Source of the DNA: an uncultured delta proteobacterium
GTDB taxonomy: Bacteria > Myxococcota > UBA727 > VGSZ01
DNA length: 64,000 bases
NCBI GenBank assembly: GCA_963775425.1
Contig: CAVZJB010000018.1
Span: 192,001-256,000 of the forward strand
Reading direction: 5' to 3'
Part shown: positions 55,767 to 59,452 of the stretch, in pieces
Layout of the letters: every line of letters starts with the position of its first letter
How positions within the stretch are numbered: position 1 is the stretch's first letter
Made by a program: the position numbers and the translations under genes
Notes under the pieces: model-generated
Told to the model about the DNA's origin: nothing
Database searches by the model: none
Seen by the model: the letters and a program-made list of their open reading frames with translations, nothing else

Positions 55767-56321
55767 GTGAGCATCCTGAGCGACAAGCGCATCCGCGAGC
55801 TGGTGAAGTCCCACGGCATGATCGAGCCGTTTGTCGAGGGACAAAGGCGCGACGGCTGCATCTCCTACGGGCTCAGCTCGTACGGCTACGACGCGCGCGT
55901 GTCCCCGGAGTTCCTCATCTTCACCAACGTCGACAGCGCCGTCGTCGACCCCAAGGCGTTCTCCGACAAGGCCTTCGTCAAGCGCGAGACCGACGTCTGC
56001 ATCATCCCGCCCAACAGCTTCGCGCTCGCGCGCACCGTCGAGTACTTCCGGGTGCCGCGCGACGTCATGGTCATCTGCCTCGGCAAGTCCACCTACGCCC
56101 GCTGCGGCATCATCGTGAACGTCACGCCGCTCGAGCCGGAGTGGGAGGGGCACGTCACCCTCGAGTTCTCGAACACCACGCCGCTGCCCGCCAAGATCTA
56201 CGCGAACGAGGGCGCCTGCCAGTTCCTCTTCCTCGAGGGCGACCAGCCCTGCGAGGTGAGCTACCTCGACCGCAAGGGCAAGTACCAGGGCCAAAAGGGC
56301 GTCGTCCCCCCGCGGCTGTGA
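55767..56321 (+). CDS. dcd: dCTP deaminase
   Basis: '[11 protein letters not shown]', 'GKSTYARCG', '[10 protein letters not shown]', 'KIYANEG', 'KYQGQKGV'. Confidence 0.97.
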
Positions 56322-56330
56322 GACGTCCTG

Positions 56331-56336
56331 TGTCAA
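56331..56336 (-). promoter_or_regulatory. -35 box (TTGACA) of the IS110 circle-junction promoter
   Basis: Perfect TTGACA at the right end; lies 17 nt from CAACCT (57818-57813) only after circularisation. Confidence 0.75.
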
Positions 56337-56359
56337 CCACCGCGCTGCGTCACGCCATC

Positions 56360-57565
56360 TCAGGCGGCGAGCGCGGCGGCGCGGCCGTGAAGGGCCGGGT
56401 CGTACGGGACGCGGGCTTTCCAGCACGCGTACAGCACCCGGAGCCACGCACGAGCGAGGATGCGGGTCGCATGCGGGTGGTCGTGGCCGCGAGCGCGGGC
56501 AGCGTCGTAGAGGGCGGCGGCCCATGGCGAGCTGTGTCGCGAGTTGTCGGCCCAGAGGGTCACGGCGGAGCGCAGGTGCTTGTTGCACGCCCACCGGAAC
56601 GCGACGCCGACGTGCTTGCCGGACGCGAACGTTACGGGGCACACGCCAGCCTCGGCCTCGAGGTGCTCGTGGCTGTCGAAGCGCGCGCGCTCGTCGCCGA
56701 GCTCGCTGAGAATCTGCGCGGCGTTGATGCGTCCGCTGCGCGGAAACGACATCACGATGTGCCCGTCGGGGTGCGCCTCGACGGCGTGTTCGACGGCGGC
56801 GTTGAGCTTCTTGAGACGTGCGACGACGATGTCGAGGACCGCGACGAGGTGCTGCACGGCTTCCCCCTTCGCCTCGGCCTCCATCTCGCCGCACTTGCCG
56901 CTGGGCGCACCTCGCAAGCGGCCCAGGAGCTCGGCGACGTCCCTGCGACCGGAGTAGTGGTTGCGCGCCAGGAACGCTTCGAGCCGCTTCTCGCCGACGC
57001 GCTCGGCGTGCTGCGGTGTCGGGTACCTCCCGAGGAACGCCAGCGCGATGGGCGAGTCGATGTCGCGGAAGATGCACGCGGCGCCGGCCCAGAAGCTCTC
57101 AACGAGCGCGCGCAGCTGGTTCGCCAGTGCAACCCGCTCGGCAACGAGGTCGCCGCGTGCGCGAACGAGGGCACGCAGCGCCTTCGTCTCGTCTCCGAGC
57201 GGCGTGAGCGTCTTGAAGCGATGCCCATCGGTGCGCAGCAAGTCTGCCAGCAGGTAGCTGTCGCCGGGGTCGCTCTTGGCGCCAACGCTCGAGTAGCGCG
57301 GACGCGTCGCTTTCACGACGTTCGGGTGAATCGGCACGACGTGGAATCCCGCATCGACCAGCGTGTCGACGACGAGCCCCGTCGGCCGCTCGATGGCGAT
57401 GCGCAGCGGCGCTTCCTCAGTGAACCTACGGAGCTTCGCCACAGCGCCGGTGAGACCCTCCTCGGTGTGCTTGACGACGAGGCGGAGCACGACGCTGCCC
57501 TTGTCGTCGATGACGCAGACGGCGTGTTCGTTCGCCGCCCAATCCAAACCTGCAAAGTACGACAC
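56360..57565 (-). CDS. IS110 family DEDD recombinase/transposase
   Basis: 'AGLDWA', 'IAIERP', 'KSDPGDSY' (D-E-D-D); 'AGVCPVTFASGK' Ser loop; AAGGAGG RBS before GTG 57565. Confidence 0.95.
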   Translation of the reverse strand: MSYFAGLDWAANEHAVCVIDDKGSVVLRLVVKHTEEGLTGAVAKLRRFTEEAPLRIAIERPTGLVVDTLVDAGFHVVPIHPNVVKATRPRYSSVGAKSDPGDSYLLADLLRTDGHRFKTLTPLGDETKALRALVRARGDLVAERVALANQLRALVESFWAGAACIFRDIDSPIALAFLGRYPTPQHAERVGEKRLEAFLARNHYSGRRDVAELLGRLRGAPSGKCGEMEAEAKGEAVQHLVAVLDIVVARLKKLNAAVEHAVEAHPDGHIVMSFPRSGRINAAQILSELGDERARFDSHEHLEAEAGVCPVTFASGKHVGVAFRWACNKHLRSAVTLWADNSRHSSPWAAALYDAARARGHDHPHATRILARAWLRVLYACWKARVPYDPALHGRAAALAA

Positions 57566-57594
57566 GACGGACCTCCTTGTTGCGGTACCGTCCC

Positions 57595-57806
57595 CCGGGC
57601 TGGGAGCCTTGATCGGTTGCTCATTGACAGGCGCTCCGTCGTCGTCAGCAAACATCGTCGGGCGCAACGTCCTGTAGCCGCTTCAAGGCTCCCGGCTTCG
57701 TCGAGGGGGCGGGTCTCACAGGGGCCGTTCACCGGCAAGCGAGCGCGGCCCTCCCCGACGAAGCCCGGGAGACGGCGCCGGGAAGATCGCTCAACCCGTC
57801 ACCGCG
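57595..57806 (-). ncRNA. IS110 bridge RNA (5' stem-loop, target-binding loop, donor-binding loop); ends approximate
   Basis: Stems 57694-57703/57756-57765 and 57602-57612/57683-57693 enclose guides matching the flanks and the element ends. Confidence 0.88.
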
Positions 57807-57931
57807 GCGTAGAGGTTGTCCAATGAGCGCGGCAGGCGGCCCGCCGCGCCTGCAACCGGAATCCCCCGTCGTCAAGCGAGCGCTCGTCCGGCGTCCGGCG
57901 TGAGACACGCCCGCGGCGCGCGCCCTTTGTC

Positions 57932-59452
57932 GTGCCACAACCAGACGAGATGTCCGGGACCTACGCCGCCGTCCAGAAGCACCCGCGCTACCCGCTGGAG
58001 GTCCCCGTCGACGTCGTCACCCCGGCGGCGGAGGTGCAGCAGCTCGCGCTCGTCGACATCTCCCTCGGCGGCGTCTTCATCCGCACCGCGCGGCCGCCGC
58101 CGCCCGGGAGCGCCCTGCGCCTGCGCATCCGGACCGGGGAGGCCGCCGCGAGCCTCGGCCTCACGGGGCGGGTGGTCCACATCCTCGACGAGGACGAGGC
58201 CCGCAGGAAGGCGCACCCGCCCGGCATGGGCGTGCAGTTCGAGGGCATCTCGGAGCAGACGCGCGCCCAACTGCAGCGCCTCGTCGACGGGCTCGTCGAG
58301 GCCGCCCGCCGGGAGCGCGCCCGCCGCGGCGCCGTGCGCTTCGCGCCGCCTGCCGCGATCGTGGTGAGCCCCGAGCGCGGCGCGGTCGCCGCGCTGTGGG
58401 AGCAGGGGCTCAAGCACGGCGGGGTGTTCGTCGAGTGCCCGCAGGGGCCCCCGTTCGGCGCGCGGGTCGGCGTGTCCATCGGGCCGCTCACGCTCAAGGC
58501 CGACGTCGTGCACATCGACGCCGGCCGCGGCTTCGGCGTGCAGGTGCTCGACCTCGACGAAAAGAAGCGCGAGGCCCTGCTGCGCTTCGCCCAGGGGACG
58601 GCGGAGCACATCGCCGTCGAGGAGGTGCGCGTCGTCGGCCCGCCGCTCGGCAAGGTGCTCGCCGCCGCCCGCCGGCTCTTCACGGGCATCGACGAGGGCG
58701 ACCTCTTCGGCGGCGCCGGCCTCCCCGACACCGCCGGGGCCGACGAGGTCAAGGTGCGCGTCGCCGGCCTCGTGCGGCTGTTCTCGACCAGGCGCCCCGA
58801 CGCCACGCCGCCGCAGCAGGCGCGCATCGAGGCCGCGTCACGCGCCGCCGCCAAGCTCGAGCCGCTTCTGCTCGCGCGCGTGGCGGCGCTGCGCAAGGAG
58901 GCGGAGCTGGCGCCGGCGCAGCTCGACGAGAGCGATCGCGTGCGGGAGCTCGTCGCCGAAGCGCAGCGGCTCATGGCGAAGGAGCCTGCGTCGGCGCGGC
59001 GCGTGTTGTTGAGCGCGCTCGAGATCGCCCCCGATGACGACGACGTCATGCGGCGGCTCGCGGCGCTCAACGAGACCATGGACTTCGCCCGCGCCGTGGA
59101 CCTCGTGAAGAGCGCCGACGTCTTCGTGCAGGGCGTGGGCATGCGCGCGGAGGCGGTGCAGCGCGCGCGCGAGGCCGCGCGGCTGACGCGGCGCCGCGAG
59201 GTGCGCCTGCTCGCGGTGCGCGTGCTCGCCAAGGCGGGCGAGCCCGACGACGCGGCCCTGCTCGCCGAGGAGCTGGTCGACGCGGACCCGCGGGACGCGC
59301 TCGGGTGGCAGGCGCTCCTCGCCGTCAACGAGCGGCGCGAGGACTGGCGCGGCGCCGCGCGCGCCGGTGAGGCCCTGCTGCGCCTGAAGCCCGGCGACCC
59401 CGCCTTGAAGAAGCGCGTGGCCAAGGCGGTGGAGCGGGCGCGCCGCGGCTGA
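57932..59452 (+). CDS. PilZ-domain protein (PilZ x2, J-like helical region, TPR-like repeats)
   Basis: 'QKHPRYPL', 'DISLGGVFI', 'PPGMGVQF'; C-terminal TPR-like helices. Confidence 0.85.
   Translation: MPQPDEMSGTYAAVQKHPRYPLEVPVDVVTPAAEVQQLALVDISLGGVFIRTARPPPPGSALRLRIRTGEAAASLGLTGRVVHILDEDEARRKAHPPGMGVQFEGISEQTRAQLQRLVDGLVEAARRERARRGAVRFAPPAAIVVSPERGAVAALWEQGLKHGGVFVECPQGPPFGARVGVSIGPLTLKADVVHIDAGRGFGVQVLDLDEKKREALLRFAQGTAEHIAVEEVRVVGPPLGKVLAAARRLFTGIDEGDLFGGAGLPDTAGADEVKVRVAGLVRLFSTRRPDATPPQQARIEAASRAAAKLEPLLLARVAALRKEAELAPAQLDESDRVRELVAEAQRLMAKEPASARRVLLSALEIAPDDDDVMRRLAALNETMDFARAVDLVKSADVFVQGVGMRAEAVQRAREAARLTRRREVRLLAVRVLAKAGEPDDAALLAEELVDADPRDALGWQALLAVNERREDWRGAARAGEALLRLKPGDPALKKRVAKAVERARRG

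Follow-up and report, generated by a model that had tools for sequence, protein, structure and literature searches.

A probable bridge-RNA insertion sequence of the IS110 group, found at gene ends in an uncultured delta proteobacterium

RESULTS

The element and its recombinase

The window analyzed in this study is a 64,000-nt stretch of DNA from an uncultured delta proteobacterium (assembly GCA_963775425.1, contig CAVZJB010000018.1, positions 192,001 to 256,000), and positions given below are those of the window unless a contig handle is named. It carries a 1.5-kb IS110-family element on the minus strand, running from 57825 to 56321, at the 3' end of the dCTP deaminase gene dcd. The CT core dinucleotides lie at 57827-57826 and 56322-56321, and CT was present on both sides in 4/4 full copies of the element in the genome. 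The long left end lies upstream of the recombinase gene and the right end measures 39 nt, core included, which is the layout of the IS110 group. The IS1111 group, in which the seekRNA lies downstream of the gene, was ruled out by the 39-nt right end and by the RNA upstream of the gene. All features are listed in Table 1.

The recombinase of 401 amino acids (aa) matched the Pfam families DEDD_Tnp_IS110 (1.5e-32) and Transposase_20 (2.3e-14), both above the curated cut-offs, and the NCBIfam family "IS110 family RNA-guided transposase" with 183 bits (cut-off, 140). An N-terminal DEDD RuvC-like domain is followed by a C-terminal Tnp domain with the catalytic Ser. The closest solved structures in the Protein Data Bank (PDB) were the transposases of IS621 (E 3.8e-07) and ISCro4 (E 9.7e-07). 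The catalytic D-E-D-D and Ser residues were intact, as the original prediction had held. They are D8, E59, D99, D102, and S315, and the first four were invariant among seven aligned proteins. The D..D pair and the Ser aligned to IS621 residues D102, D105, and S241, the residues named by Hiraizumi et al. 2024 (PMC11208158), if the PDB chain numbering is offset by +2, as it appears to be. The element is almost certainly of the IS110 family and IS110 group, with a bridge-RNA kind of system.

Table 1. Features of the element and its surroundings in the window. GC3, G+C content at third codon positions; SD, Shine-Dalgarno.
Feature	Positions	Strand	Basis or remark
dCTP deaminase gene dcd; TGA stop 56319-56321 overlaps the core	55770..56321	plus	Pfam DCD 5.9e-34, GC3 0.99; start approximate
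IS110-family element, from CATTGG... (left end) to ...GACGT (right end) with the CT core at 56322-56321	56321..57825	minus	Boundaries set by four full copies with different flanks
Right CT core (56322-56321) and right target CACAG	56316..56322	minus	Plus strand reads CTG TGA G, last codon and stop of dcd
Left donor (element right end), read by left donor guide	56323..56331	minus	Exact match
TTGACA of right end, 8 nt before core; -35 of the putative junction promoter	56331..56336	minus	TTGAC context in 62/69 right ends
Recombinase gene, 401 aa, GTG start	56360..57565	minus	D8, E59, D99, D102, S315
Non-coding left end, 260 nt, encodes the bridge RNA	57566..57825	minus	Fold -141.6 kcal/mol
SD sequence AAGGAGG, 6 nt upstream of GTG	57572..57578	minus	
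Bridge RNA core, target-binding and donor-binding loops	57601..57759	minus	Model R1, 135.9 bits
Donor-loop outer stem, 3' arm	57602..57612	minus	Exact complement and covariation
Donor-loop handshake guide CA; C complements G at target -1	57618..57619	minus	First base 66/66 relatives
Right donor guide CAAUGAG (5 nt of right donor plus core)	57620..57626	minus	Exact match and relatives
Left donor guide ACAGGACGU (donor -9 to -1, core excluded)	57667..57675	minus	Exact match and relatives
Donor-loop outer stem, 5' arm, pairs with 57602-57612	57683..57693	minus	Exact complement and covariation
Target-loop outer stem, 3' arm	57694..57703	minus	Exact complement and covariation
Target-loop handshake guide AC, complements GT before donor core	57713..57714	minus	66/66 and 64/66 relatives
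Right target guide CUGUGAG (5 nt of right target plus core)	57715..57721	minus	Exact match and relatives
Target-loop inner hairpin (GCCG / CGGC)	57724..57736	minus	Helix 2, 100% of cells paired
Canonical left target guide (probable): GCGCUCG (57746-57740) and core CU (57739-57738); 1-nt linker 57737	57738..57746	minus	Homology
Left target guide of the original prediction, GCCGCGCUC, opening with the invariant GCC	57741..57749	minus	
Target-loop outer stem, 5' arm, pairs with 57694-57703	57756..57765	minus	Exact complement and covariation
-10-like CAACCT of the putative junction promoter, 17 nt from TTGACA after joining of the ends	57813..57818	minus	Weak, 2/6 to TATAAT
Left-junction CT core	57826..57827	minus	CT at both junctions, 4/4 full copies
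Left target flank of the window copy, 7 nt before core	57828..57834	minus	Differs among genome copies

Structure of the bridge RNA

The left-end fold had a z score of -5.9, and none of 200 shuffles was equally stable. The two outer stems of the original prediction proved perfectly complementary, with 10 bp between 57694-57703 and 57756-57765 and 11 bp between 57602-57612 and 57683-57693. Relatives were collected from genome contigs (10 loci, 45-67% protein identity) and from metagenomes (80 more, 52-68%). When nine upstream regions were aligned, variable stretches were flanked by invariant blocks, and RNAalifold recovered four helices, namely the two outer stems and two inner hairpins. Placed on eight sequences, the structure left 84.3% of cells paired, compared to at most 49.2% when the partners were slid. 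Compensatory changes were found in 17 of 31 pairs, which were altered on both sides, and the observed score was reached by 0/500 shuffles.

A covariance model of the RNA had been proposed as a check. The model, R1, detected the two-loop RNA in 85 of 91 sources (full length in 80), in each case upstream of the recombinase gene and on its strand; in the six sources without a match, the gene starts at most 114 nt from the contig end. R1 matched the window once only, with 135.9 bits, the window row itself being part of the training set of the model. A permissive Rfam scan of 55800-58300 returned no matching family and one chance-level small nucleolar RNA (E 0.59). The IS621-type architecture claimed for the element, a target loop, a donor loop, and a CT core, was thus present with covarying stems and with guides that track the flanks, as described below.

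Guides and their agreement with the flanks

The original prediction assigned four guides from matches to the flanks and ends of the element, and each match was reproduced. The plus-strand sequence at 57741-57749 is identical to 57825-57833; 57715-57721 is the reverse complement of 56316-56322; 57667-57675 is identical to 56323-56331; and 57620-57626 is the reverse complement of 57821-57827. When the left end (248 nt, the first 12 nt omitted) was shuffled 20,000 times with dinucleotides preserved, the four guide words were found in 136, 318, 20, and 82 shuffles, at least two words occurred together in 6, and all four in none.

Agreement between guide and flank was then counted in the relatives after duplicate junctions had been removed, with mismatched guide-flank pairings as controls. 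The right target guide agreed with its flank at 5/5 positions in 57 of 66 junctions, at 4/5 in 8, and at 3/5 in 1, and control rates at the three variable positions were 0.46, 0.32, and 0.36. The core of the right guide agreed in 66/66 junctions, and the core of the left guide equaled the junction core in 65/66. In 69 right ends, the left donor guide agreed at a rate of at least 0.97 at each position from -9 to -2 and of 0.58 at -1, and the core was never covered. Three of the four proposed guides, the right target, left donor, and right donor guides, therefore stand, as they covary with the flanks in relatives; the register of the left target guide probably does not, and it is treated separately below.

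Two features of these guides had been put forward as possibly new. A 7-nt right guide lies inside the range of 4-7 nt given for the 3' guides by Durrant et al. 2024 (PMC11208160), who describe longer right guides in some orthologues, and a left donor guide that ends before the core is common to the right ends of all 69 relatives examined. Both are therefore features of the clade, small variations that are not special to this element.

Handshake guides were recognized 3' of the right guides. The AC 3' of the right target guide complements the GT before the donor core in 66/66 and 64/66 relatives at its two positions. The first base of the donor-loop handshake guide complements target position -1 in 66/66, and the second base complements the target in 27/66. 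These positions vary little, so that their information is low; paired changes were seen in relatives L014 and L097.

Two side observations concern the pairing of guides. At 57618-57630, a UGU 5' of the right donor guide could pair with an ACA at left-end positions 7-9 with one DNA base bulged, which recalls the discontiguous right-donor pairing of IS621; by our reading, it is not conserved in relative L015. In relative L019 (Actinomycetota), the left junction core is GC (near 2242) and the right one is GT, while its left target guide carries GC and its right guides GT. Such a mismatch is the trace that would be left by a target core unlike the donor core at the second base.

Genome copies and target sites

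The assembly (18 contigs, 8.26 Mb, 71.9% G+C) contains four full copies of the element, three identical and one with a single-base difference, and one copy that breaks off after 932 nt. When the genome was searched with Pfam, the same five places were returned, together with a second IS110-like gene on another contig. The four full copies have intact frames of equal length and lie at different sites. All share CG-CT at the left junction and CT-CACAG at the right one, and the seven-base stretch left of the core otherwise varies. Among the 212 CTCACAG sites in the genome, 4 are occupied, and CG precedes the core in 4/4 occupied and in 44 of the 208 free sites. The expectation that other copies would fit GCCGCGCTCACAG was borne out for CT-CACAG (4/4) and for the preceding CG (4/4), and the remaining left bases agreed at chance level. 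Target recognition is asymmetric: CT-CACAG and the two left bases CG are kept, and the distal left target is loosely read.

The truncated fifth copy (C18:86451-87382) is on the same contig, outside the window; it ends inside the recombinase gene, its left junction reads TG-CT rather than CG-CT, and a ParB gene was identified by Pfam about 1.4 kb beyond it. The second IS110-like gene is found as two pieces about 2.9 kb apart, an N-terminal piece at C13:290974-291072 (L028) and the main part at 293930-294244 (L027), and may be interrupted.

Location at gene ends

On the opposite strand, the T of the core and the first two right-target bases read TGA, and CT-CA corresponds to TGA-G in antisense. 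This puts the copies one base past the stop of a convergent gene, a harmless position. All four full copies lie one base after the TGA of a convergent gene that ends in Leu (CTG), the three outside the window being at C12:322651, C12:77274, and C4:511133. The frames that end at this TGA are long in all four, with GC3 values of 0.94-0.99, and three of the four target genes encode Pfam domains near the stop (DCD, FG-GAP with ASPIC/UnbV, and FemAB-like). In the relatives, an opposite-strand stop codon was found at this place in 62/69 right junctions.

The location was also scored by one fixed criterion, an open frame of at least 60 codons with GC3 of at least 0.80 and a GC3 exceeding GC2 (the same content at second codon positions) by at least 0.2, which is crude; by it, 4/4 occupied and 33/208 free CTGTGAG sites were gene ends. 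For relatives with enough flank, with GC3 taken over the last 80 codons, 28/47 junctions were gene-end-like, compared to 10/170 other TGAG sites in the same flanks.

Two explanations may be considered. The first, which we regard as a serious candidate, if somewhat short of probable, is survivorship: insertion would occur at any CG-CT-CACAG-like site, and genic copies would then be lost. The donor right end begins with CA in 68/68 distinct left ends, so that CT-CA may simply reflect a mechanical preference, its reading as TGA on the other strand being fortuitous. No stop codon was present at the place in 7 of the 69 right junctions, and 19 of the 47 testable junctions were not gene-end-like. 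The excesses of 4/4 over 33/208 in the genome and of 28/47 over 10/170 in the relatives stand against it, although neither separates targeting from selection. The second explanation, advanced more tentatively, is that the clade has a built-in rule of landing one base after a stop codon, a place chosen by the RNA and not by selection alone. Under such a rule, the constant UGAG of the right target guide would read the antisense of TGA and a G, the three variable bases of the guide would read the last sense codon of the convergent gene, and the left guide would read the first bases past the stop. Besides the crudeness of the criterion, one consideration tells against targeting: selection against gene-disrupting insertions could yield much of the enrichment without it, and by a rough estimate from composition such selection alone would give about one third.

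Probable register of the left target guide

Among the 85 aligned RNAs, 77 have a target loop whose 5' strand runs from CC through 7 variable nt, the core, and 1 nt to the inner hairpin. By homology, this places the left target guide at 57746-57738, so the position first proposed is probably off by 4 nt, the canonical guide lying further 3'. Relative to this canonical guide, GCCGCGCUC begins 3 nt further 5' and stops 3 nt earlier, which would leave a 5-nt linker before the inner hairpin.

At positions -7 to -1, the left targets of relatives matched the canonical register at rates of 0.20, 0.44, 0.56, 0.55, 0.67, 0.79, and 0.98, compared to 0.17, 0.29, 0.32, 0.29, 0.30, 0.50, and 0.90 in controls. 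The mean was 4.18 of 7 against 2.76, with positions -6 to -2 above control; 14 of the 66 junctions reached 6/7, and none was perfect. By our reading, relatives L012, L014, and L019 fit at 6/7 each. From this fit of the relatives' left targets, we consider the canonical register the probable left target guide.

That the register first proposed works in this element instead, with GCCGCGCUC (57749-57741) pairing with the left target alone or in alternation, is unlikely, although several observations speak for it. Its 9-nt match to the flank of the window copy is exact, with the word arising in 136 of the 20,000 shuffles, the loop carries CGCU twice, and in this register (A) the four full copies fit at 6, 5, 4, and 3 of 7, compared to 3, 6, 4, and 3 in the canonical register. 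The match carries low weight for the register, however, because its GCC is invariant in 9/9 RNAs of the first alignment and five more of its bases (CGCTC) recur, the loop holding CGCT twice; both registers read CG-CT for the same reason. A fit of 6/7 in register A is also reached by chance at 3 of the 208 free CTCACAG sites. The fixed loop strand in 77/85 rows and the fit of the relatives' left targets both disagree with it, and in IS621 the guide is followed by a 1-nt linker (Hiraizumi et al. 2024, PMC11208158), as in the canonical register. Two observations in this genome stand against the canonical register: the left target of the window copy fits the register first proposed at 6/7 and the canonical one at only 3/7, and over the genome copies the fit of either register at positions -7 to -3 is no more than chance would give. 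As the fit at -7 to -3 is at chance level, the canonical reading of the left guide rests on the relatives and not on this genome.

Probable recent activity and a putative junction promoter

Taken as a whole, the data are very probably best explained by an intact, recently active IS110-group insertion sequence with a two-loop bridge RNA and a 401-aa recombinase. That the copies are inactive relics with an RNA region out of use, as the truncation of one copy after 932 nt might suggest, is highly improbable given three identical full copies, a fourth one base off, frames of the same length at different sites, and intact catalytic residues.

By homology with IS621, the element would excise as a circle, at whose junction TTGACA of the right end and a weak -10 hexamer of the left end would be combined into a promoter. 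When the ends are joined, TTGACA and the left-end hexamer are 17-18 nt apart. The left end contains a conserved xACCyT motif; among 68 distinct left ends, A10 was retained in 64, C11 in 65, and C12 in 68. Such a promoter would fit the junction promoters described for IS621 and ISPpu10. In the RNA made from it, the donor loop would hold the joined ends and the target loop the genomic site, and the recombinase would swap strands at the CT core. RNA expression and catalysis, like the circle and the promoter, are inferred from IS621.

Some findings do not favor this account of an active, RNA-guided element. The -10 hexamer matches TATAAT at only 2/6 positions by our reading, and a simple scan of the integrated copy found no sigma-70-type promoter. 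A look-up of sequencing runs listed no RNA data set, and nine DNA runs each contained a fraction of 0.05-0.09 of the sequence words, which bears on neither habitat nor expression. Model R1 and alignment A4 were fitted to a structure that we supplied, and because of this fit the loop lengths (strands of 12, 14, 12, and 14 nt in 77/85 rows) lean towards it. Two free sites, C16:572119 (-) and C17:303363 (-), carry the same 13-mer as the window target (GCCGCG-CT-CACAG) and are unoccupied. No empty site for the exact locus was found among relatives: of 20 relatives' genomes, 12 contained the 3' end of dcd, the stretch on the far side of the element had no DNA match in the seven loci searched, and the sequence after dcd differed in all six relatives compared, one of which (L030) keeps CTGTGAG at the dcd stop. 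The locus could not be reconstructed from a relative because the downstream flank of dcd is not conserved.

DISCUSSION

The anatomy of the element, its copy number and flanks, the covariation of its RNA, and its gene-end location are direct observations, and they can be compared with several known systems. One of them, IS621 of E. coli (PMC11208160, PMC11208158), has the same architecture. Both combine a CT core and a DEDD and Ser recombinase with an RNA encoded in a long left end. In both, the target loop precedes the donor loop, and the left target guide, here in its probable canonical register, is followed by a 1-nt linker. Within each loop, the 5' guide is identical in sequence to the top strand and the 3' guide is complementary to it. 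Two-nucleotide handshake guides lie 3' of the right guides and match the other DNA. The two differ in that the similarity of the proteins is distant (E 3.8e-07, in the C-terminal domain) and the right target guide is 7 nt here, compared to 4 nt in IS621. The left donor guide of the clade reads -9 to -1 or -2 and never the core (69/69), whereas that of IS621 reads positions 1-8 with the first core base.

ISPpu10 of Pseudomonas putida shares the asymmetric reading. Bench work describes its left guide as tolerant of distal mismatches and strict beside the core, and its right guide as strict (preprint 10.64898/2026.03.19.712850); the asymmetry is therefore already published and not new. A circle-junction promoter with the -35 from the right end and the -10 from the left end is described for ISPpu10, and the putative promoter of the window element would be put together in the same way. 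The sites differ: ISPpu10 targets a repeated intergenic sequence in which a GC-rich stem-loop adds specificity, whereas the sites of the window element are gene ends and not repeats. A target-side stem-loop of the ISPpu10 kind was not supported. In the 40-nt left flanks of 63 relatives, the mean z was 0.29 and the mean energy -12.3, compared to -11.9 in 100 control windows. In the element's own copies, z was 0.49, -2.22, -0.89, 1.14, and -2.19, below -2 in 2/5. A GC-rich hairpin with a 7-bp stem and an 8-nt loop was noted at 57832-57853, 4 nt left of the core and just past the dcd stop; no T run follows it, and it could be the terminator of dcd.

Insertion by IS621 at half-matched sites, which match the core and one arm only, has been described in a further preprint (10.64898/2026.08.31.748434). 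If the core and one arm are enough here as well, this would explain the copies with a poor left target fit. Sites matching the right arm only could not be scored for IS621 because its right guide is only 4 bp (10.64898/2026.08.31.748434). The 7-nt right guide of the present element makes natural sites of this right-target-only kind visible, although there are only four of them.

Members of the IS900/IS901/IS902 group, also in the IS110 family, insert between the ribosome-binding site and the start codon. They home to a translation signal in one orientation, as the present clade may do, and differ from it in that they lie at gene starts, whereas the clade lies at gene ends.

We found no report of stop-codon landing in the literature covered, in which supplements and older subscription papers were not included, and this is no proof of novelty. 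The term "stop codon" did not occur in the available text of Durrant et al. 2024, of the ISPpu10 preprint (10.64898/2026.03.19.712850), or of preprint 10.64898/2026.08.14.744561; its occurrence in the accessible part of the seekRNA preprint refers to the stop of the transposase gene itself.

The known mechanism is unchanged by these findings. Three points deserve to be kept in mind: the revised left guide, the strict-right and loose-left pattern at natural sites, and the position one base past stop codons. The element provides a GC-rich, multi-copy natural example of a bridge RNA whose right guide spans 7 nt and whose handshake guides are clear, and the pattern at its natural sites bears on the prediction of off-targets for bridge recombinases. 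If the clade does follow a rule for landing after stop codons, changing the variable triplet in the right target guide would redirect the element to other gene ends, each a safe landing place. A gene-end location that is targeted, and not just selected, would give the element a simple route to spare its host and would be a consideration in guide design.

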